NCBI GenBank assembly: GCA_964405115.1 | Contig: CAYOMN010000001.1 | Span: forward strand, 5,755 to 65,923 | Direction of reading: 5' to 3' | DNA length: 60,169 nucleotides | From: an uncultured Candidatus Saccharibacteria bacterium | Lineage (GTDB): Bacteria > Patescibacteriota > Minisyncoccia > Phycocordibacterales > UBA1006 | Made by a program: the position numbers and the translations under genes | Shown here: piece by piece, positions 1-50,501 of the stretch | How positions within the stretch are numbered: position 1 is the stretch's first letter | Layout of the letters: every line of letters begins with the position of its first letter | The notes under the pieces: generated by a model | What the model was told of the DNA's origin: nothing | The model's input: the letters and a program-made list of their open reading frames with translations, nothing else | Databases searched by the model: none

Positions 1-3000
1 GAACTATCTGTTACATCTGAACCTGAATCATTACTGTCTAAAGTGTCATCATTGTTTGTTACATTTCTCTGTTGTTGAGTACACCATGCATAAGTATTAT
101 CTTTATTACATAACTCTAATTTAAGAATATTATTTTCTTCTATTAAAATATTAATAGAGCTTCTATTTTCAATAACCCTCTTCCACAAATTAGACACATT
201 ATCAACAATCTCAATAACCTTATTAATAACTTCTTCTATTGTATTAATAATCCAATTATTATCTTTTGTCTCATCTTCTAAAGAAGTTTCTAATAGATTT
301 ATATTTATCTGATCTTGATCATCTATATCAGAAAGGTTTGATACACTTACTGATTTATTAAAAATATCCTCATTTCCTACGCCAGGGAACCATTGATTAT
401 CAACAAATACCATAACAGTTCCACTCTCTTGCTCTTCACTAAATCCTGTTAATGCAATACCTATAGTGTAACCTGCTTCTATAGCTTTCTTTCCTATACC
501 AGACTCATGTGAAATTGTTATTCTATCTCCTGAATGTATTTCTTCATTATTATCTAACATAACCTTAACTGGAACCCTACCTCTTAATGCAATAGGAATA
601 GGTCTCCCTCCTACCCAATCATCACCGGCACCAATGATCTTACCTGGATCAGTTGAAACCACACCAAATAATGTATCGCCGATACTTGCCTTTTTAACAC
701 CAGCACTTAAAGATGAATCTATTGTAACAAGATCACCAGCTTCTAATTCATTATCATTCGTATAATATACTTCAGAATAATCAGCTCCAGATTCAATAAA
801 TTTCTTTATCGTTATCGACGTTCCGTCTGCCATGGTTGTTGGGTTACTACCTCCACCAACTTTAAGTGCACGTAGTCTAATAGCATCACCATTCGATAGA
901 TTTAATATCAACGTTCTTGTACATGAATTACCTTCTGCTGTTGTATTTCTATGATAAGTACTACAAATAGATCCATCTTGAATTGTATTATTAACATCTA
1001 ATGACCATTGAACTTCAGTTCGTGTTGTACCACCACCGTCTGCTGAACCAGTATATGTTACTTCATATAAACCATCAGAATTAACAGTAACTAGATCAGT
1101 TGCCAACGAATAATTAATATTTGATTTTCGAACAGTATCTAAATTAACAGTTATCTCTGTGGTTGTTATTGTCTGTCCCCCTGTATTATCATAAACATCA
1201 TATGCACTTGATATACCTGCATCAGATGAACACTCCCACGCACCTGATGTTCCATTCCACTTAGCTATTTCTCCATCAGAACAAGAGAGACCTCCAAGTG
1301 TATCATTATCAATACTTAAAGAACCAAGACTAGCACTATCCGCTATTACCATAAAATGCCATATTTTATCACGTCTAATCCCAGCTGTCGTACCATTATC
1401 TTGCTCTGTTATATCAACATCAAAAGCTGCGGTTGTTTGATTATCTATTGAAATCTCCAAGTCATCCAAAGTAGAAGCTTGCTCATCAACTGTTAATTGT
1501 ACTGTATAATTATCTGTACTTAATGGCGTATCTAATGTAACAGTATAATCACCAACATTATTTCTTGTAACATTCGCTCCATTTACATCAAGTTCTATTC
1601 CATTAGCAGCAATCTTACCATATGCAACGATTTCACTTTGCTGAACAACTGTACATTCCCAAACAGAGGTTGTAGAATTCCATGATAAATACTCGCCATC
1701 AGCACATCCTCCAATAAGACGAAGTCCACTCGCAGTTGTTTCAAGTCCAGAATTAGAATTCGTAGTTAAGGTAGTTCCTACAGTAGTAGTATCGATCGTA
1801 ACATCATTCGCATTCACAATAATTCCATTTCCAGCGCCAATATCAAGAGCACTTCCACCACCACCAAATAAACCATCACCTGCAATAGATGTATTAAGTA
1901 AAGTTTCTGTTATTCCCCCATTGGGAACTGCAAAAACATCTCCTGTTAAACTAAGCCCTGTTCCAGCAGTATACGTTGTGTCATCGTCTCCATCATCTAA
2001 TCCTGATGGTCTATTTTGTATATTTGCCCAATCAGGTTGAATACTTGCAAGAGAAATCGTTTGATTGGTACCATTTTCAATCCCAATAGAAAGATTATTT
2101 GCTAAAAAAGATGATCCTTGAATATTTTGATTGTCAGTATTATCGAGATATCCTGATAGGTTAATGTTCGTTGTCGTTCCGTTTTCATCAAAATAATTAA
2201 GAGAATTTACGTTTAATGAAAGACTAGTAACACTTTCGTTAATATCCTGAGTAACACCATTTTCATTAGAGTAATCAGCAATCTTATGTCCAGAAATAGA
2301 ATTAGCAATATTCGTTATTGTTTCTAGCGTACTTACTGTGATTGGAACCCAATTAATTCCATTCCAACTCAATACTTGTCCATTTGTTGGAGTTATAGTT
2401 GTTGTGTCAACATCGAAATGGTTATTAATAGAACCAAGTAAAAGAGTATCTAAACTCACCCAATCTGTTCCTGTAACAGTACTACTTAAAATTTGTCCAG
2501 CAATACCAATTTCATTACTAGAGTCATAATACCCACCAGTTACACGAATATTTCCAGATACTTGAAGTTCTTGAGTAGGGGAAATTGTTCCTATTCCAAG
2601 TCTCTTATTTATATCATCCCAAAAGAAATTAATATTATCTTGACTAATTTGATTATTTGAATCTGCAAACAAAACAGAACCATTAACAAAACTACTTGAC
2701 TGTGTAGAAAAGATTCCAGAAATATCAGGAATTATTAATATATTATCAGATGTAGGGTCATTAACAGATATAGAAGTTTCAAAGGTGTTATTTGTCAATC
2801 CTTCAAAAATGAAAGGAACTGAACCTTGGACAATACCTGTAAATGTTATTTTATCAGTAATATCATCTCCAAATGACACATCGGCATTTGATAAAATATT
2901 CCCAGCAACGGTTAATCCACTAGACATGGAAACATTATCTAGAAAAAGAAATCCCTGATTTATTCCAAAAGTATTAAAAGTTGTATATCCATCAAGGGCA

Positions 3001-5798
3001 ACTGAAGTATCAAAGTAATTTGCTGTATCATATCCTACTTGCATTTGAGGTGTCACAGATGAATTATTTACAACTAATCCTGACATTGTAATGTTATTTA
3101 CATTATAAATCGAATTATTTCCTAGATCTAAATCACCAGTTAAAGTTCTTCCACCATTTGTTAATAAATATTGAGGATGATCATCATCTAACAATCCAGA
3201 TAAATTTCCATGATCAGCAACAGAACCGGTAGTACCAGAAGTCCCAAATCCAAAAACCCTATCAAGATTAGGACGTACATCATAAATATCATTAACTATA
3301 GAAGTTGCTCCTTGCTGAGAAACAATTGTCGCTAAAAACACAGCACCTGCCTTTTGAATACTCACTGGAATATCTGGAAAAGCTCCATCTTTTGCTTCTG
3401 TTTCTGTTGCATACTCAGCTTGCCCATAAATATAATTAACACTACCATCCAAAGTTCTTAATACTAAATCTTTTTTCCAATAACCATTTGTTAAGTTAAC
3501 AAGAGCGTTTATTTTTGGTCGTGTAATATCATTGTATTGTGTAGTAGAAACAAGATTTAAATTACTAAAATCTTGTACCCACCCATTATCAGATGTTTTA
3601 TTCCATTTAGTAAAAGCTATTGTGTCATTTACTACATATTCAGAGAGATTAGAAAATAGAATTCCTGAAGTTATTAATAAACTTAAATTTGTACTTCCCT
3701 CTGAAACAATATTCCCTGACTCAACAATTGTTCCTATAACATTATTTAAAAAATCATTATTTTTAGCTGTATAATTTCCAGCAAAAAATGGATTCGAAGA
3801 TAAAAGTCCAATATCCGAATTACTATTAAATGTATACACATATCCTAGATAGATATACTCATGTGTATTTGACCGAATATTAGTTATCCTAACAGCACCA
3901 GTTGAATCTATATAAACAAAATTATCTCCATTATAGAGAAGTGAAATATTATTTAGTCCTGTCCATGTTACTTCTAAAAGCTTATTAGAAATATTATTAA
4001 CAAAACCACTTCCGTCTGCAATATTTATAGTATTACCCCCATTATCACTAAGTTCTCCACCATCAACTAAACCAGTAGACCATCTCTTATTTGCATTTAA
4101 ACCAAGATGCTGCAAAACATCTTCTATATTATTCTGAGTATAATAATTACCACCATCAGCAACTGGAATATCCAAAGCAGATACTTGATCAACATTAGTT
4201 CCCCAATTTATCTTTGAATCATTAATAGCATCGTCAATTACCTTATTTGTACTTACACTACTATCAGATAATTTTATTTCTGTAACTGAATTACTTGCTA
4301 ATTGATTTACACCAATACCATCATTTGGTACATATAGCTGATTAGACGTGTTTATTCCAACGGTAACATTATCAACACCTAGAGATAAAACTCTATTTGA
4401 CAAACTTAAGGCATTGTTAAGCGCCACAGAATAAAGATTAGAAAGATCAACAGTTTGTGTAGCTACAGCATCGTCTTCCAATGATAAATTTAATACACCA
4501 TCCACAAGAGAAAAAACATCAACTACCTGGTCATCAGTATTTACTGTCATATTTGTAGGTTCCCAATTAGCTCCACTCCAACTCAATACTTGTCCATTTG
4601 TTGGAGTTATGGTTGTTGTATCAACATCGAGAAGACTGTTAATATCAGAGTTAAGGCTGAACACAGTTCCTAATAATTGTAATCCTACTCCAGCTGTATA
4701 AAGTGTATCTATATCGATAGAACACACAAAGGCTGTTCCATTCCATTGTAATTTATTTGTACCAGAACAAGTTGGTGTATTCACAGAAAAAGCAGTTCCT
4801 GTTAGAATAACTCCATTTCCAGCAGTATACGTTGTGTCATCGTCTCCATCATCTAATCCTGATGGTCTATTTTGTATATTTGCCCAATCAGGTTGAATAC
4901 TTGCAAGAGAAATCGTTTGATTGGTACCATTTTCAATCCCAATAGAAAGATTATTTGCTAAAAAAGATGATCCTTGAATATTTTGATTGTCAGTATTATC
5001 GAGATATCCTGATAGGTTAACAGTTGTAACATCATTAGTTAAGCTAAGTATATCACTAGAAAGTGAAAGATCTTGATTATCGGTATTGTCTAAGTAAGAA
5101 GATAAACTAACAGTATAATCACCGACCGAATCGTTCTCTAAAGATAAATGTAATGTATTAGCTAAAATATTAAAAGTATCCACAATTTGATCATCAGTAT
5201 TAACTGTAGAAGCAATACATACCCAATAACCATTGCTATTATCCCACTGAAGAACATGTCCATCTGTAACACATTCAATACGGTCCTCACTATTATATAT
5301 AGCTGTAATACCATCAACAACCAAAGCATCAGATCCTGTCGCATCTCTACCAGCTGAACCCATACCACCACGCCCTCTAGGTCCAATATCTCCTTTTTCA
5401 CCATTCTCGCCCTTAGGACCTTGATATCCTCTAGGTCCAATATCTCCTTTTTCACCATTCTCGCCCTTAGGACCTTGATATCCTCTAGGTCCAATATCTC
5501 CTTTTTCACCAGAAATAGCCTCTATAAATTTATCTTTTTTTCCTGTTAAATTATTACAATCAGAAAAAGCACAAAATGTTTTAAGAGACACCCTTTCGGC
5601 AATCGATAAATTAGTCTTTTCTTCTGGGGTAATATCTTTTTCACAATATGAAAAAGTACAAAATACTTTTAGCGATAATTCTTCTAATAAATTTATATCA
5701 TTGTCCTCGGCATATACTTTTATAAAAAATGAACTACTCAAAAATAATACAAATAAAATTATCAATAGTTTATTAACTTTTTTTTTATTTAATATCAT
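1..5798 (-). CDS. giant secreted surface protein, first 1932 codons (3'-partial, runs off the left edge): signal peptide, collagen-like Gly-X-Y stretch, phage-tail-fibre-like beta-rich modules
   Basis: Absent from the supplied ORF track because it has no in-window stop. ATG at 5798 lies 5 nt after the stop of 5804..6010. I translated the reverse complement line by line down to nt 3 and met no stop. N-terminus MILNKKKVNKLLIILFVLFLSSSFFIKVYA/EDND resembles a Sec signal peptide. It has 17 Gly-X-Y triplets and the motifs TYTAGxG, TPTNGQVLSW(S/N)GxNW, DHGNLSGLLDDDHPQYLL and FFWDDINKRLGIGT. Confidence 0.85.
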   Translation of the reverse strand, partial: MILNKKKVNKLLIILFVLFLSSSFFIKVYAEDNDINLLEELSLKVFCTFSYCEKDITPEEKTNLSIAERVSLKTFCAFSDCNNLTGKKDKFIEAISGEKGDIGPRGYQGPKGENGEKGDIGPRGYQGPKGENGEKGDIGPRGRGGMGSAGRDATGSDALVVDGITAIYNSEDRIECVTDGHVLQWDNSNGYWVCIASTVNTDDQIVDTFNILANTLHLSLENDSVGDYTVSLSSYLDNTDNQDLSLSSDILSLTNDVTTVNLSGYLDNTDNQNIQGSSFLANNLSIGIENGTNQTISLASIQPDWANIQNRPSGLDDGDDDTTYTAGNGVILTGTAFSVNTPTCSGTNKLQWNGTAFVCSIDIDTLYTAGVGLQLLGTVFSLNSDINSLLDVDTTTITPTNGQVLSWSGANWEPTNMTVNTDDQVVDVFSLVDGVLNLSLEDDAVATQTVDLSNLYSVALNNALSLSNRVLSLGVDNVTVGINTSNQLYVPNDGIGVNQLASNSVTEIKLSDSSVSTNKVIDDAINDSKINWGTNVDQVSALDIPVADGGNYYTQNNIEDVLQHLGLNANKRWSTGLVDGGELSDNGGNTINIADGSGFVNNISNKLLEVTWTGLNNISLLYNGDNFVYIDSTGAVRITNIRSNTHEYIYLGYVYTFNSNSDIGLLSSNPFFAGNYTAKNNDFLNNVIGTIVESGNIVSEGSTNLSLLITSGILFSNLSEYVVNDTIAFTKWNKTSDNGWVQDFSNLNLVSTTQYNDITRPKINALVNLTNGYWKKDLVLRTLDGSVNYIYGQAEYATETEAKDGAFPDIPVSIQKAGAVFLATIVSQQGATSIVNDIYDVRPNLDRVFGFGTSGTTGSVADHGNLSGLLDDDHPQYLLTNGGRTLTGDLDLGNNSIYNVNNITMSGLVVNNSSVTPQMQVGYDTANYFDTSVALDGYTTFNTFGINQGFLFLDNVSMSSGLTVAGNILSNADVSFGDDITDKITFTGIVQGSVPFIFEGLTNNTFETSISVNDPTSDNILIIPDISGIFSTQSSSFVNGSVLFADSNNQISQDNINFFWDDINKRLGIGTISPTQELQVSGNIRVTGGYYDSSNEIGIAGQILSSTVTGTDWVSLDTLLLGSINNHFDVDTTTITPTNGQVLSWNGINWVPITVSTLETITNIANSISGHKIADYSNENGVTQDINESVTSLSLNVNSLNYFDENGTTTNINLSGYLDNTDNQNIQGSSFLANNLSIGIENGTNQTISLASIQPDWANIQNRPSGLDDGDDDTTYTAGTGLSLTGDVFAVPNGGITETLLNTSIAGDGLFGGGGSALDIGAGNGIIVNANDVTIDTTTVGTTLTTNSNSGLETTASGLRLIGGCADGEYLSWNSTTSVWECTVVQQSEIVAYGKIAANGIELDVNGANVTRNNVGDYTVTLDTPLSTDNYTVQLTVDEQASTLDDLEISIDNQTTAAFDVDITEQDNGTTAGIRRDKIWHFMVIADSASLGSLSIDNDTLGGLSCSDGEIAKWNGTSGAWECSSDAGISSAYDVYDNTGGQTITTTEITVNLDTVRKSNINYSLATDLVTVNSDGLYEVTYTGSADGGGTTRTEVQWSLDVNNTIQDGSICSTYHRNTTAEGNSCTRTLILNLSNGDAIRLRALKVGGGSNPTTMADGTSITIKKFIESGADYSEVYYTNDNELEAGDLVTIDSSLSAGVKKASIGDTLFGVVSTDPGKIIGAGDDWVGGRPIPIALRGRVPVKVMLDNNEEIHSGDRITISHESGIGKKAIEAGYTIGIALTGFSEEQESGTVMVFVDNQWFPGVGNEDIFNKSVSVSNLSDIDDQDQININLLETSLEDETKDNNWIINTIEEVINKVIEIVDNVSNLWKRVIENRSSINILIEENNILKLELCNKDNTYAWCTQQQRNVTNNDDTLDSNDSGSDVTDS
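1961..2164 (-). repeat. 204-bp exact direct repeat, copy 1 (inside the giant CDS)
   Basis: Base-for-base identical to 4817..5020 on manual comparison. The offset is 2856 bp (952 codons), so the copies are in frame. Confidence 0.9.
4817..5020 (-). repeat. 204-bp exact direct repeat, copy 2 (inside the giant CDS)
   Basis: Identical to 1961..2164. Both encode NLSGYLDNTDNQNIQGSSFLANNLSIGIENGTNQTISLASIQPDWANIQNRPSGLDDGDDDTTYTAG. Confidence 0.9.
5377..5510 (-). repeat. 54-bp tandem repeat, about 2.5 copies, encoding (GEKGDIGPRGYQGPKGEN)n collagen-like triplets
   Basis: The unit ctaggtccaatatctcctttttcaccattctcgcccttaggaccttgatatcct starts at 5377, 5431 and 5485 (the last copy is partial). The period is a multiple of 3 and is in frame with the giant CDS. 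Confidence 0.9.
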
Positions 5799-43715: not shown

Positions 43716-45638
43716 TTAATTAACAACCCTACTATCTCCAGCAACAGCTGATGAATCTGACAATCTAGTCGTGAGAGGTGTCTTTTTATAGCTAAGATCT
43801 ACATCAGTAAATGTATCCCTACCAGATAAAATTATATTTCTAGTAATATCTGGATTTGTATCAACATGCGATAACGATGGTAATAACTCTACCTGAAATG
43901 AAACTTGTCTTGGCCTAACTTCACCAATACCAACACCAGCTTGTAAGTCACCAATATCCCATTTAACTTCCCTTGTAGTTTTGTTAAAATCAATTTTACT
44001 CCTTTCAACTGATGGTGATATATTTCCTGTCCAAGTAACATAAGAAGGAAGTGTTGTTATAACTTTAGTATCTTTTATATCATTTGATGAATTTAATATC
44101 TGTAATGTAACTGTATATTTTGTCTTTTCTCCTACTCGTGGTGGAATAGGCCCACTATTTTTAAATGGGCCGTCACTATATGATGTTTTTGCTATCAAAC
44201 TTAGATCTGAATTAGCTAATACATCTACTCTAGAAATAGAAGATGCCTCACGAATATTTCCATTATCTTCAATACCAGAAACGTTAATTGTTACTGTAAA
44301 ATTAGGGTTTTCAATAAAACCTAAACTACTAACTAAGTCTTTTGTATCTAAATTAAAGTTCAAAGTACCTGATTCACCCGGGTTAAGAGACTCCAATTCA
44401 GCTACATTATTCTTATCCCAAATAATATTCTTACTATTAGAATTATAATCACCATTTAACGAAAGAACCTTACTTGGAATATATAAATCACCATTTAAAT
44501 TTGCTGTTACTTGTACGTCATTAAGTACTTTATCAAGATTATTTTTATATTCTATTTCAATATTAACATTATCACCACCACGGATCGGAACCTTACTTTC
44601 ATTTTTATTGTTTGCACTAATATCTGCTGTAATAAAAGACTCTTTTATATCAACAGTGTGAGTAACCTCATCAAACGTTGTTTCTATTGAATCTTTCTGC
44701 AACTGATTTTGCTTCCCAACTTTTGCTTGAAAAGACTGCCCTTGTCCTGGTAAAGCATCTAAACGACCAGATATTTTGATAACCTCTTCATCAGATGTTA
44801 TCTTTGGAAAATACCATATATTAGATCCAAATTTTGGTTTAATATTTGATGAAATAAACTCAAATCCTAACGGATAATTAACACTAAGCAAAATATCATT
44901 TATTTGTTCATTTGTATTAGATGAAACACTTATATTTAATTGAATCTCTTGATTCTGAACTATTTCCTTCGGAGCATCAATTGATAATTTTGTCGGGGTT
45001 GATCGTATAACAAGTTCATGATTTATTTTTTTAACAAATATAGAACTAGATCCTTCAATACGGTATTCCAACGTAGCATGTATATTTCTTACATCACCCT
45101 CCTTTCCGTACAATAATAAGTTAAATTCCTCATTTATACGTTTTCCACTCTCAATATCAGAAAGAGACCGACGTAAAAAAACTTCATCGTCTTTGCTTGA
45201 AGAATCTTTAGGATAAGACAAAATAAGATCTGGTAGAATCAATTTCTGTTTATTAAAATTTTGAATACGTACATGTAATTCAAGATTCTCTCCTCCATCA
45301 ATAAAAGGTTGCCCTAAGATCTCCATTGAAATTAAATCGTCAGAAACCTTTTCTTTTTTATCATATAAAGAAATTACAGCAATGACAGCTGTTATAATAA
45401 AAAAGAATAGTACACCAAGAAATATCTTTCGAAAGATAGATGTTGGTAATTTTCTTTTTCTATTTTTAGTTAAAAGTTTGTCAAGATCTTCCTCTTTAAA
45501 ACTATGTTTCAATTCAATATTACGACCATGGATCTTACGCCTTTTACGTTGTAAAAATTCTTTATTCTTAAAATAAAGTTCATCATTTAATATATCAATT
45601 TTTTGTTTCTTTTGTTTCGGAGTTATATCATCTCTCAT
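43716..45638 (-). CDS. single-pass membrane protein with a large beta-rich (Ig-like repeat) ectodomain
   Basis: Basic N-terminus, a TM segment (IFLGVLFFFIITAVIAVISLY), then about 540 aa rich in N/S/T/V and looking like beta sandwiches. Confidence 0.55.
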   Translation of the reverse strand: MRDDITPKQKKQKIDILNDELYFKNKEFLQRKRRKIHGRNIELKHSFKEEDLDKLLTKNRKRKLPTSIFRKIFLGVLFFFIITAVIAVISLYDKKEKVSDDLISMEILGQPFIDGGENLELHVRIQNFNKQKLILPDLILSYPKDSSSKDDEVFLRRSLSDIESGKRINEEFNLLLYGKEGDVRNIHATLEYRIEGSSSIFVKKINHELVIRSTPTKLSIDAPKEIVQNQEIQLNISVSSNTNEQINDILLSVNYPLGFEFISSNIKPKFGSNIWYFPKITSDEEVIKISGRLDALPGQGQSFQAKVGKQNQLQKDSIETTFDEVTHTVDIKESFITADISANNKNESKVPIRGGDNVNIEIEYKNNLDKVLNDVQVTANLNGDLYIPSKVLSLNGDYNSNSKNIIWDKNNVAELESLNPGESGTLNFNLDTKDLVSSLGFIENPNFTVTINVSGIEDNGNIREASSISRVDVLANSDLSLIAKTSYSDGPFKNSGPIPPRVGEKTKYTVTLQILNSSNDIKDTKVITTLPSYVTWTGNISPSVERSKIDFNKTTREVKWDIGDLQAGVGIGEVRPRQVSFQVELLPSLSHVDTNPDITRNIILSGRDTFTDVDLSYKKTPLTTRLSDSSAVAGDSRVVN

Positions 45639-46841: not shown

Positions 46842-49800
46842 TTAACTAATTTTACAAATAAAAGTTAATTTCCCTGCTTTTATTTCTGTTCCACTATTTT
46901 CTGTAAACTTAATCTCTGTAATACCAGCAGATAATTTAAACTTACTTTTTCCTTTCTCAATTTTTTCAACAAACTCTCTACCATTATCATCAGTCCATAT
47001 TTCTAGAATTATTTTATTATGAGCATCTAATCCTGCATTTTTACGCATCTTTTGAATTCCACGTAACAATTCACGAATATTTCCCTCTTCTATCAAAGCA
47101 GAAGTTAAATTAGTATTCAAGGATAACTCACCATCAATTAACGTCTTTACATTCATCTCATCTAAAATTAACTTAATATATTCCTCTGGAAGATCCTTTA
47201 TTGGCACTGTAAATGATGAAAGTGGTTGTCTAACCTTTAATTTAGACTCAGCTCTCATCTGTAAACCGACACTTATTAAACCTCGAACTCGTATCATATT
47301 TTCAATAACATTATTGTCATCATAAATATTTCTATCTGACATTGAAGATATATTTATCTCACCTAATCCTTCTTTTTTCGAACAATAAAATAATGTTGGC
47401 CAGCCTTCAAGATGAACAGATTCTAAAAGAGATGAATCTAAAGCTCTTAAATCCTGCCATAATTCTTCTGCAACAAATGGTATAAATGGTGCTATTATCT
47501 TTGAGACTGTTTCCAAAACTTTCCTTGTTGTAGATAAAGCATTCTTTTTATCTAAAAGATTTTCCCCCTTAAACCTATCACGTGAACGACGAATATACCA
47601 AGTAGAAAAATCATCAACAAATTCAAATATAGGACGTGCAGCACGATCAAGCTCATAATTATCAAGACCTTCTGTTACAGAAGATAATAGTTCATACATT
47701 CTAGCAATAATCCACTTATCTAAAATATTATCTGAATTAAAAGAATCACTATGTTCTATATTACCAACATACATTTTATATAATGACATTATATTTCTTA
47801 ATCTGCCAATCACTTTTGATGCAACTTCACGAACCCCCTTTTCTGAAAAAGCAAACTCTTCTGCACGAACAACAGGAGAATTAATCATATACAACCTCAT
47901 CGCATCAGCTCCAGATGTATCAAAAATCAATTGTGGATCAGGATAATTTTTTAAAGATTTTGACATCTTTTTACCATCTTCTGCTAAAATTAACCCATTA
48001 ACAATAACATTTTCAAATGGAGTCTTATTAAAAAGAGCGTTACCAATAACTGTCATTACATAAAACCATCCACGTGTCTGATCAAGACCTTCTGCTATAA
48101 ATTGTGCTGGGAAAGCTTTTTCAAATAATTCCTCATTTTCAAACGGATAATGTTGTTGTGCATACGGCATTGATGAAGAATCAAACCAAACGTCAAATAC
48201 ATCGTTCACACGTTTCAATTCAACCCCATCTTGTTCAATAATAAAATTATCAATATAAGGCCTATGAATATCCAATATCATATCTTCATTGTGTGGGTAC
48301 GGAATAAAATCTAACTTCAAGATATTCGCATTTTCAATTTCAGGTTTTATATAATAAAAATCATAAAAATATCGTTTTAATCCATGCTTTTCAGTAGCAA
48401 ATTGTAAATTTTTTATTGTTTCTGCATGAGAAACAAATAATATATTTTTATTTTTATATTTTTCTTCAAGCTCGAATAGTAAATCTGTCGTTTCTTTATA
48501 TAAATTTCCTATGGATTCGGAATCATTCTCTAATTTTAGATCAAAAATATCTTTTCCTTTTTTCTTTGATTCTTTGTGAAAATCAATCCATTTTTTACCT
48601 TCCCATTTTTTACCAGTATTTCTCTCCCGAATTCTTTTATCAAAAATAATTTGTCCTTTATCTAAACTAAGTTGTTCTCTAATTATTTCTGCAGTCTCTT
48701 TTGTACGCATTAATGGTGATGTAATTATTAAATCAATATCTTTATTTAACAATCCTTTTACACTATCTTGTACTTGTTTACGACCTAAGTCAGTTAAACT
48801 ATTTTCTGTTTTAATCTTCGCATTTATGGCCCCTGTTAAATTTGATTCTGATTCTCCATGTCTTATTACATAATAATTATTCCCTGATCTTTTCGCATAA
48901 GAAAATAATTCATCATAGGAACTAATTACCACATTCTTTTCTGTCTTTGAATTAAACCAAATCGGCAACGGCGTTCCCCAAAAACGTGAACGTGAAATTG
49001 CCCAGTCACGAACTCCTTCAAGCCACTTCCCAAATCTCCCAGATCCAACATGTTCAGGAATCCAATTTACTTTTTTATTTGATTCTATTAATTTATCTTT
49101 AATTTTAGGAACATCAATATACCAAGAAGTTGTTGCATAATTAAGAAGTGGAGTATCACATCGCCAACAATGAGGATAAGAATGAACTAACTTTTTCTTT
49201 GAAAAAAGTTTTCCATCATGAGCAAGTCGCTTAATAATTTCAATATCAGCAGACATTAAATCATCTTTCTTTTTAACTAACATATCAACAAAAGAATCAC
49301 CATCAACTGTATCTGCAAATATATGTTTGAATGCTCCTGATTTTGAAACATGTTGAACAAAAGGCAAATCATTTTCTTCTCCCAACTGTAAATCATCTGA
49401 ACCAAAAGCAGGCGCAATATGAACTACCCCAGTTCCTTCTTCCGTTGTAACAAAATCAGCTCCATACACTTTCCATCCATTTCCATGATTTTCTGTCTCC
49501 GGATCATTTTGATAATAATCAAAAGGAGCAAGATATTCTATCCCTATAAGCTCAGAACCTTTCATTTCTAAAATAATTTCATAAATCTTACCTTCAAAGA
49601 AATATCTTTTACTTCTATCATTATTAGGAACCAATTTTTGGTCTTCTTTTGCAAAAATACTTTTTGCAAGAATATATTTATCAGTAGAAATATTTTTAGT
49701 ATCTCCATAATTTTCAGGAGAATTAATCTGTGCTGATGAGACTTCTTTAATTTTTACATAATCAATGTTTTCGCCAACCGCCAGAGCAACGTTTCCTGGA

Positions 49801-50501
49801 AGCGTCCACGGTGTTGTAGTCCATGCAAGTAAAAATGTCCCTGGTTCGTCTTTTAATTCAAACTTAGCAGTAAGAGAAATATCTGTAACATCTTTATACC
49901 CTTGATTTACTTCAAAATTTGATAATGTCGTCTCACATCGTGGACAAAGATGCATTGCCTTAAATCCTTCTTTAGTAAGTCCTTTCTTATGGAGCTCTCC
50001 AAAAACCCACCAAATAGATTCCATATATTCTGGATCCATTGCCATATAAGCATCTTCCATATCAACGAAACGTCCGGAACGAGGAACAGATTTTTTCCAC
50101 TCGGATTCATAACGCAGAACAGAGTCTCGTGCAGATTTATTAAATTTATCTATTCCATAATCCTCAATATCTTTTTTTGTTGCAAGTCCTAATTCTTTTT
50201 CAATAAGATTTTCAATGGGAAGCCCATGACAATCCCAGCCCCACTTTCGTGGAACATGATAACCTTGCATTGTCTTATAGCGTGGGATGATATCTTTTAT
50301 AGTTCCAGCAAGAAGATGCCCATAATGAGGTAACCCTGTCGCAAAAGGAGGTCCATCATAAAATACAAAATCTCCCTTTGGGGATTCTTTTTCCAGACTT
50401 TTCCTGAAAATATCATTTTTTTGCCAAAAGGAAAGAATTTTTTCTTCCATTTTTGCTATTTCTGATTTTTCCGTTTTTTGACTTTCTCGTTCTTTATTCA
50501 T
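46842..50501 (-). CDS. ileS: isoleucine--tRNA ligase (type 2) with an inserted histidine-phosphatase-superfamily domain
   Basis: PHYGHLL (HIGH), the editing-domain WTTTPWTLPGN and KMSKS. Residues about 541-735 (nt 48297..48881) carry RHGESESN, SPLMRTKETA, RERNTG and VSHAETI. Confidence 0.92.
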   Translation of the reverse strand: MNKERESQKTEKSEIAKMEEKILSFWQKNDIFRKSLEKESPKGDFVFYDGPPFATGLPHYGHLLAGTIKDIIPRYKTMQGYHVPRKWGWDCHGLPIENLIEKELGLATKKDIEDYGIDKFNKSARDSVLRYESEWKKSVPRSGRFVDMEDAYMAMDPEYMESIWWVFGELHKKGLTKEGFKAMHLCPRCETTLSNFEVNQGYKDVTDISLTAKFELKDEPGTFLLAWTTTPWTLPGNVALAVGENIDYVKIKEVSSAQINSPENYGDTKNISTDKYILAKSIFAKEDQKLVPNNDRSKRYFFEGKIYEIILEMKGSELIGIEYLAPFDYYQNDPETENHGNGWKVYGADFVTTEEGTGVVHIAPAFGSDDLQLGEENDLPFVQHVSKSGAFKHIFADTVDGDSFVDMLVKKKDDLMSADIEIIKRLAHDGKLFSKKKLVHSYPHCWRCDTPLLNYATTSWYIDVPKIKDKLIESNKKVNWIPEHVGSGRFGKWLEGVRDWAISRSRFWGTPLPIWFNSKTEKNVVISSYDELFSYAKRSGNNYYVIRHGESESNLTGAINAKIKTENSLTDLGRKQVQDSVKGLLNKDIDLIITSPLMRTKETAEIIREQLSLDKGQIIFDKRIRERNTGKKWEGKKWIDFHKESKKKGKDIFDLKLENDSESIGNLYKETTDLLFELEEKYKNKNILFVSHAETIKNLQFATEKHGLKRYFYDFYYIKPEIENANILKLDFIPYPHNEDMILDIHRPYIDNFIIEQDGVELKRVNDVFDVWFDSSSMPYAQQHYPFENEELFEKAFPAQFIAEGLDQTRGWFYVMTVIGNALFNKTPFENVIVNGLILAEDGKKMSKSLKNYPDPQLIFDTSGADAMRLYMINSPVVRAEEFAFSEKGVREVASKVIGRLRNIMSLYKMYVGNIEHSDSFNSDNILDKWIIARMYELLSSVTEGLDNYELDRAARPIFEFVDDFSTWYIRRSRDRFKGENLLDKKNALSTTRKVLETVSKIIAPFIPFVAEELWQDLRALDSSLLESVHLEGWPTLFYCSKKEGLGEINISSMSDRNIYDDNNVIENMIRVRGLISVGLQMRAESKLKVRQPLSSFTVPIKDLPEEYIKLILDEMNVKTLIDGELSLNTNLTSALIEEGNIRELLRGIQKMRKNAGLDAHNKIILEIWTDDNGREFVEKIEKGKSKFKLSAGITEIKFTENSGTEIKAGKLTFICKIS

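Follow-up and report, generated by a model that had tools for sequence, protein, structure and literature searches.

What leaves two stretches of DNA, far apart within one gene, identical at every base? The question is raised by a 60,169-nt stretch of the genome of an uncultured Candidatus Saccharibacteria bacterium (assembly GCA_964405115.1, contig CAYOMN010000001.1, positions 5,755 to 65,923), referred to here as the window, which begins with a giant gene for what is presumably a secreted, trimeric and adhesive fibre. The gene lies on the minus strand and contains the same 204 nt at positions 1961-2164 and 4817-5020. Unless a contig of the 445-kb source metagenome-assembled genome (MAG) is named (G000:C1 and so on), all coordinates are positions in the window. 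We propose that this repeat is probably the footprint of one recent, non-reciprocal copying of a module within the gene, from a site near the N-terminus of the protein (site 1, holding copy 1) to a second site further downstream (site 2, holding copy 2).

An exact in-frame repeat inside a giant fibre gene

In a direct comparison the two copies, denoted R, are identical at 204 of 204 nt, and the very next base differs at both ends. For comparison, exact repeats in 50 shuffled versions of the gene were at most 16 nt long. The copies are spaced by 2856 nt, which is 952 codons, and are therefore in frame with each other. An earlier note on this DNA, made by reading the letters, had described an exact in-frame pair at this offset, and our recomputation gives the same result.

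Outside the tract the similarity falls off differently on the two sides. On the low-coordinate flank, which is the C-terminal side in the protein, 23 of 34 nt match and the next 34 nt match at 5 positions; on the high-coordinate, N-terminal side the corresponding counts are 9 of 34 and then 12 of 34, which is the random level. The edges of the tract fall at conserved motifs: the identical stretch begins at the outer edge of the NLSGYLDNTDNQ motif and stops just past DDDTTYTAG, and comparison with homologues indicates that both motifs were present at both sites before the copying.

A second, diverged pair (T) lies between the two R copies. Its members share 88% identity over 83 nt at an offset of 2214 nt, and encode DVDTTTITPTNGQVLSW(S/N)G at aa 388-412 (T1) and aa 1126-1150 (T2); the pair of roughly 85% identity that had been noticed at this offset is therefore real. 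Third codon positions at the conserved residues of T match in 17 of 22 cases, for an expected fraction of 0.56. Since this is modestly above expectation, T might represent an older event or just a strongly conserved motif. The order along the protein is R1, T1, T2, R2, and not that of a tandem array. Together with the differences in module content among orthologues described below, this order bears out the view of the gene as a mosaic of reshuffled cassettes.

Synonymous sites and the age of the copy

Two copies of a module could in principle be kept alike by selection on the protein. However, the third codon positions of the two R copies are identical at all 59 comparable sites, while only 41% of third positions at conserved residues are identical between G000 and the orthologous module of a relative of the same genus (G017), a value that corresponds to saturation. 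The codon usage of the fibre gene alone predicts 56% identity at third positions. As an internal control, the peptide YLDNTDNQ occurs once more 30 codons upstream of copy 1, where its DNA differs at 6 of 24 nt. Conservation of the protein therefore does not explain the identity of the DNA, and the suggestion that the repeat marks a recent duplication or gene conversion gains from the contrast between 100% identity at synonymous sites within the gene and 41% to the orthologue.

The identity could also be ascribed to constraint on the bases themselves, each copy being a selected DNA or RNA element such as the template or variable region of a diversity-generating retroelement (DGR), a small RNA or a binding site. 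The identity as such speaks for this explanation, as does the presence of the DGR target Mtd among the Foldseek matches of the central domain of the fibre. Yet a DGR pair shows its differences at adenines, and the two R copies have no mismatch over their 204 nt; a search of G000, which is 72% complete, with the reverse transcriptase model PF00078 gave no match. Moreover, both copies are ordinary in-frame shaft modules, of a type that occurs widely in the family, at 30-67% identity, and the closest orthologous module has freely diverged at its synonymous sites. We consider constraint at the nucleotide level extremely improbable; its DGR version was rejected on the absence of mismatches and of a reverse transcriptase.

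Orthologues point to copy 1 as the resident copy

Three genomes of the same genus (G017, G003 and G006) carry the fibre gene at the same locus, directly after the gene for iPGM. Their proteins share the N-terminal 200-420 aa with the G000 fibre and differ from it in modules and tips. The G017 orthologue (1004 aa) aligns collinearly with aa 28-418 at 51% identity and that of G003 (more than 824 aa) with aa 6-363; the G006 protein has 864 aa. As for the tips, G017 carries TIG and COLFI/fibrinogen-like domains, G006 a Peptidase_S74 domain (65.8 bits), and G000 matches to BclA_C and Peptidase_G2 that stay below threshold. The rest of the G000 protein is tiled by more distant homologues (P0002-P0011), which are 44-64% identical over parts of it.

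At site 1, the G017 protein has a single R-type module, in the position of copy 1 and with 67% aa identity to it, and downstream of the module both proteins continue into the same NG..L.GT.FS.N.PTCSGT.KLQWNGTAFVC context. At site 2 a different picture emerges. Five homologues (P0002, P0006, P0007, P0008 and P0011) agree with G000 in the context that precedes copy 2, ..LETxTNIxNxIxGHKIADYTNE...NSLDYxDEDGxxTNIDLSGYLDNTDxQ, but past YLDNTDxQ they carry other module types, and their alignment with G000 resumes at ..TTY(T/S)AGTGL.L.G. Among the homologues compared, the NIQGSS...WANIQNRPSGLDDGDDDTTYTAG module is found at the position of copy 2 in G000 only. Because the R-type module is orthologous only at copy 1, and other modules stand at site 2, copy 1 appears to be the resident and copy 2 the import.

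How the module may have been copied

According to this proposal, the 68-codon module at site 1 would have overwritten a different module 952 codons downstream, with the junction motifs ..LSGYLDNTDNQ.. and ..DDDTTYTAG.G.., present at both sites, serving as homology arms. The pattern would be compatible with RecA-mediated gap repair, that is gene conversion, or with template switching during replication.

Several points weigh against this proposal. The direction of transfer is read from one close orthologue (G017) and from one 68-aa module. Homology next to the tract consists of 34 nt of old similarity on the C-terminal side, and on the N-terminal side there is none outside the junction motif that is part of the tract itself. 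Arms of about 30 nt are near the lower limit for RecA and, since they are so short, template switching or illegitimate recombination is an equally possible route. Finally, the assembly bears on both the layout and the identity of the copies. In a de Bruijn graph with k=55 a 204-nt repeat forms a loop, and A-R-B-R-C, in which B is the block between the copies, is the one linear layout in which every edge is used. How often the loop is passed, how its parts are linked and whether the copies are perfectly identical depend on the assembler, and collapsing of bubbles can erase real differences. That the assembly was of this kind is indicated by contig ends that overlap by exactly 55 nt and by scaffold gaps that are bordered by exact 55-mers.

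The repeat might accordingly be an assembly effect, in which the loop was misthreaded, variants of strains or paralogues were joined, or near-identical copies were collapsed, and no single cell carries A-R-B-R-C or the exact identity. The MAG is 72% complete and consists of 20 scaffolds with N gaps, one of which lies inside the fibre gene between exact 55-mers. The fibre gene as a whole is also compositionally atypical for the genome: in tetranucleotide usage, segments B and C and the whole gene fall below every random genome segment, with segment A within the normal range. This deviation is most likely due to the unusual amino-acid composition of the protein and says nothing about a chimeric block B. 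Against an assembly effect, the four junctions (A|R, R|B, B|R and R|C) all keep the frame, and homologues from independent assemblies align collinearly across each of them, namely G017 and G003 at site 1 and P0006, P0008 and P0011 at site 2. The gene runs for 5.8 kb without an in-frame stop, and the bin contains only one such gene. The same assembly retains exact repeats of 401 nt and 212 nt uncollapsed, and comparable repeats are present in the genome of an isolate, Robiginitalea myxolifaciens DSM 21019. The homologue-spanned junctions appear to weaken the assembly caveat, and we judge an artefact unlikely. With several exact repeats longer than the k-mer of the assembler, however, the length of the gene and its number of modules in this MAG are not to be trusted pending long reads.

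Deletion of the 952-codon block and the question of a switch

RecA acts efficiently on perfect repeats of about 200 nt. A recA gene is present at G000:C6:19501-20283 (449.7 bits), and recJ lies inside the window; the statement in the earlier note that the copies are substrates for RecA is thus plausible. Once established by copying, the two R copies could now recombine so as to delete or duplicate, in frame, a 952-codon block that includes a receptor-binding-like domain. We would regard such recombination as a by-product of the copying and not as a designed switch.

A stronger form of this idea, also raised in the earlier note, is that the repeats are kept as a functional switch of fibre length or domain content, deletion and re-duplication of the block by RecA generating a heterogeneity of fibres that is under selection. 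The in-frame offset and the presence of recA would suit a switch, and the block holds the receptor-binding-like central domain, which is present in some relatives (P0002, P0003) and absent from others (G017, P0005). The switch fails, however, on conservation: two R-type copies were found in none of 40 relatives and in none of the homologues examined, the closest ones included, and since no relative has the two-copy layout it does not look like a conserved design. A deletion would in addition be irreversible without a donor copy, which makes it a one-way loss and not a switch. Nor is the locus equipped with the usual machinery. Nearby we found neither a site-specific recombinase nor an inverted repeat nor a reverse transcriptase; tyrosine recombinases are encoded on contigs C4 and C8 of G000 only, and the best inverted repeat at the locus is 31 nt long with 77% identity. 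An invertible, shufflon-type switch was rejected on the same grounds, the lack of inverted repeats and of a nearby recombinase.

We also looked for variant forms of the locus in other data and found neither variant contigs nor a further assembly of the species. A degenerate DNA pattern of the R peptide had no match in JGI metagenomes; a protein-guided metagenome scan returned relatives that are at most 46% identical; look-ups of the exact products of the neighbouring iPGM and signal peptidase genes gave no record; and in a search of 5.8 billion proteins the closest were 50-60% identical over part of the length. Taken with the other points, a selected switch seems to us quite improbable. A related idea is that the conserved junction motifs (..YLDNTDxQ.. 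and ..DTTYTAG.G..) act as in-frame joints at which cassettes are copied, swapped or deleted, and that the perfect repeats lead to frequent excision of the block and to a mixture of long and short fibres in this presumably episymbiotic bacterium. We hold this to be unlikely; if it were true, the excised 952-codon block would take the receptor-binding-like domain along.

Dispersed repeats in related fibre genes

Is such a repeat unusual for genes of this kind? A comparison of 95 related loci from independent assemblies shows that direct repeats with a length of 80 nt or more and an identity of 90% or more are common, and nearly all of these keep the frame; overall, related fibre genes contain dispersed in-frame DNA repeats at 70-99.9% identity. 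In the cultured isolate R. myxolifaciens DSM 21019, an open reading frame (ORF) of 2861 aa carries over 15 repeats, which are dispersed and 90-98% identical, and another ORF, metagenomic and at least 3509 aa long, contains repeats of up to 699 nt, at 91-97% identity and offsets of up to 5682 nt. Closer homologues have older repeats of a like kind, at 70-86% identity. From these comparisons the G000 repeat appears to be at the youngest end of a continuum of repeat ages in the family. The ends of BLAST high-scoring segment pairs fall near the junction motifs in 18% of cases against 11% expected; as these segment pairs are not independent of each other, the enrichment is a weak support. The repeat pair, most likely a recent copy of a module, is ordinary for this gene family and gives no sign of a programmed switch.

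R-like modules (DNTDNQNI..., QPDWANIQ...) were also seen, at 56-63% aa identity, in many "tail fiber" genes of Flavobacteriales/Bacteroidota (loci L019-L056), and are thus nearly as close as the module of the same-genus orthologue (67%). This suggests that fibre modules may be shared across phyla, or that some contigs are mis-binned.

One of the homologues, P0002 (L015:3001-10500, ENA contig k141_486386), is a fibre gene of 2499 aa with 21 in-frame TGA codons, several of which stand at tryptophans that are conserved in the family, for example at both W of ..LAWDGSNWVP... Because of these positions, the organism seems to translate TGA into Trp, unlike the recoded lineages of the candidate phyla radiation, in which it stands for Gly.

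Architecture of the fibre protein

The coordinates of the features of the fibre gene are collected in Table 1. Beyond the left end of the window the ORF runs on through a scaffold gap of 100 N and reaches about 2053 aa in total. An alternative genetic code in G000 was ruled out: translation table 11 yields dense long ORFs, and the fibre gene has no in-frame TGA.

Table 1. Features of the giant fibre gene, in window positions
Feature	Position	Strand	Basis
Giant fibre gene, part in the window, aa 1-1932	3..5798	-	ORF, goes on left of the window
Signal-peptide-like N-terminus (MILNKKKVNKLLIILFVLFLSSSFFIKVYA|ED)	5709..5798	-	Read from the sequence; N-terminus conserved in orthologues
Collagen-like Gly-X-Y stalk	5374..5511	-	54-nt unit x2.6, 100% identity
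R copy 1, NLSGYLDNTDNQ-NIQGSSFLANNLSIGIENGTNQTISLAS-IQPDWANIQNRPSGLDDGDDDTTYTAG, aa 260-327 (R1); ancestral site, inferred donor	4817..5020	-	Identity and orthologue comparison
Flank of copy 1 on the protein C-terminal side, NGVILTGTAFSV; old, unconverted homology to 1927-1960 (23/34 nt)	4783..4816	-	
T motif copy 1, DVDTTTITPTNGQVLSWSG; family motif, widely conserved	4562..4644	-	Sequence comparison
Block B between the R copies, aa 328-1211; with one R copy, the 2856-nt, 952-codon unit	2165..4816	-	Arithmetic
Central beta-rich domain, aa 525-885, within block B	3144..4226	-	Present in two copies in P0003 and P0004
T motif copy 2, DVDTTTITPTNGQVLSWNG; 88% nt identity to copy 1	2348..2430	-	
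R copy 2, identical to copy 1, aa 1212-1279 (R2); inferred recipient site	1961..2164	-	Identity and homologue comparison
Flank of copy 2 on the protein C-terminal side, TGLSLTGDVFAV; partner of 4783-4816	1927..1960	-	
BclA_C-like region, aa 1537-1666	801..1190	-	26.8 bits, below the Pfam cut-off of 38
Peptidase_G2 (intramolecular chaperone)-like region, aa 1655-1728	615..836	-	21.7 bits, below the Pfam cut-off of 25

From N- to C-terminus, the protein consists of the signal-peptide-like segment, two Cys motifs, the collagen-like stretch, shaft modules, the central domain, more shaft modules and a C-terminal part. The collagen-like stretch matches collagen and BclA in the PDB, and the Pfam Collagen model at aa 97-145 with 27.3 bits for a cut-off of 27.2; it is this collagen repeat that suggests a trimer. 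The stalk is probably variable in length too, since it is built of exact 54-nt repeats here and the G017 orthologue has exact 36-nt repeats of its own at the same position.

For the central domain, an AlphaFold2 model of the monomer was computed from 12 aligned homologous segments and reached a mean pLDDT of 72. All best matches of this model in a Foldseek search of the PDB were receptor-binding or tail-fibre proteins of phages, among them the phi812 baseplate protein (E = 1.7e-5), the tail fibre of cyanophage A-1(L), Mtd and the receptor-binding protein of phage 1358. With TM-scores of about 0.2, this likeness is a lead and not a fold assignment.

The distal end of the fibre has a coiled-coil-like segment and an acidic tail of repeats rich in Ser, Asp and Thr (G000:C1:5391-5754), which holds the assembly gap of 100 N between exact 55-mers. 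There is no LPXTG motif in the protein.

Genomic neighbourhood

The G000 assembly has a G+C content of 29%. Its relatives have genomes of 0.5-0.9 Mb even at 96-100% completeness, which fits the Patescibacteria label. Upstream, the neighbour of the fibre gene is the iPGM gene; downstream follow a dockerin-like protein of 246 aa, a secreted Big_13-like protein of 769 aa and a second fibre-type gene (G000:C1:1-2251, minus strand), which has YadA-like head repeats and is broken by another N gap. These three genes and the giant gene look like an island of surface proteins. The N-terminus of the second fibre resembles that of P0003 (INYQGKL...), which is the segment of P0003 with the weak match to the N-terminal model of the mosaic adhesive trimer (MAT) fibres of Bdellovibrio.

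Elsewhere in the window, a 640-aa protein with a match to DUF11 repeats (43716-45638, minus strand) is another likely surface protein, and the isoleucyl-tRNA synthetase (46842-50501, minus strand) contains an insertion, at aa 544-700, of a His_Phos_1 (histidine phosphatase) domain. Of the two other long exact direct repeats in the genome, one, of 401 nt, is located at G000:C6:23285-24170 with an offset of 485 nt; the other, of 212 nt, at G000:C12:12433-12950 with an offset of 306 nt, belongs to a peptidoglycan-binding-like domain that is duplicated in tandem within a secreted protein.

Discussion

Homogenisation of surface-protein modules by recombination is already known. In the alpha C and Rib proteins of group B streptococci, in staphylococcal SasG and Aap, and in the streptococcal M and Scl proteins, in-frame repeats are homogenised by recombination or gene conversion and are prone to changes in size. 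The fibre gene of G000 resembles these repeat adhesins in having long identical in-frame DNA repeats within a surface-protein gene. However, those are tandem arrays of one unit, and here 2.65 kb of unrelated sequence lie between two dispersed copies, in a gene of many cassettes; this dispersed form within a cassette mosaic is what differs.

The tail fibres of P2, Mu and T-even phages are mosaics that arise by exchange at conserved segments. The borders of the G000 modules likewise fall at short conserved motifs, and the same upstream context is followed by different downstream modules. Unlike phage tail fibres, the gene is chromosomal, stands beside the housekeeping iPGM gene and outside any prophage, and the exchange proposed here is within one gene. 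A search of 50,697 phage records with aa 170-460 of the fibre gave no match.

A further parallel is offered by the MAT fibres of Bdellovibrio bacteriovorus (Caulton et al. 2024, PMC10769870; NCBIfam NF053851). Both families comprise secreted fibres that are like phage tail fibres, with a conserved proximal part, swappable chimeric distal domains and subfamilies with and without S74, and both belong to bacteria that live on other bacteria, presumably so in the case of G000. The G000 fibre differs in its collagen-like stalk and in its N-terminus; indeed, the N-terminal model NF053851 did not match it, and the only match was P0003 (E = 4.4e-4, 20 bits, for a cut-off of 60). Moreover, MAT proteins form a repertoire of many genes, whereas here a single syntenic locus varies between species. 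With the collagen-like fibres BclA of Bacillus, Scl1/2 of Streptococcus and Pcl of Pasteuria (PMC6238073, PMC10987987), the G000 fibre shares a triple-helix stalk of Gly-X-Y encoded by exact DNA repeats and followed by a globular distal part; in contrast to them, its collagen covers only about 50 of about 2050 aa, it lacks LPXTG, and its match to BclA_C is subthreshold. Keyword searches of the literature returned no description of this fibre family in Patescibacteria.

By itself the repeat is nothing out of the ordinary: recent gene conversion or duplication leaves such marks in modular genes for surface proteins. It is of value as a dated snapshot, in which the copying of cassettes is seen to be still ongoing in a fibre gene that is hypervariable but keeps its locus. 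In this genus of ultra-small and presumably host-dependent bacteria, the N-terminal anchor and the stalk of the fibre are kept, and the shaft modules and tips vary from species to species. The fibre gene may thus be regarded as a reasonable candidate for a determinant of host attachment.

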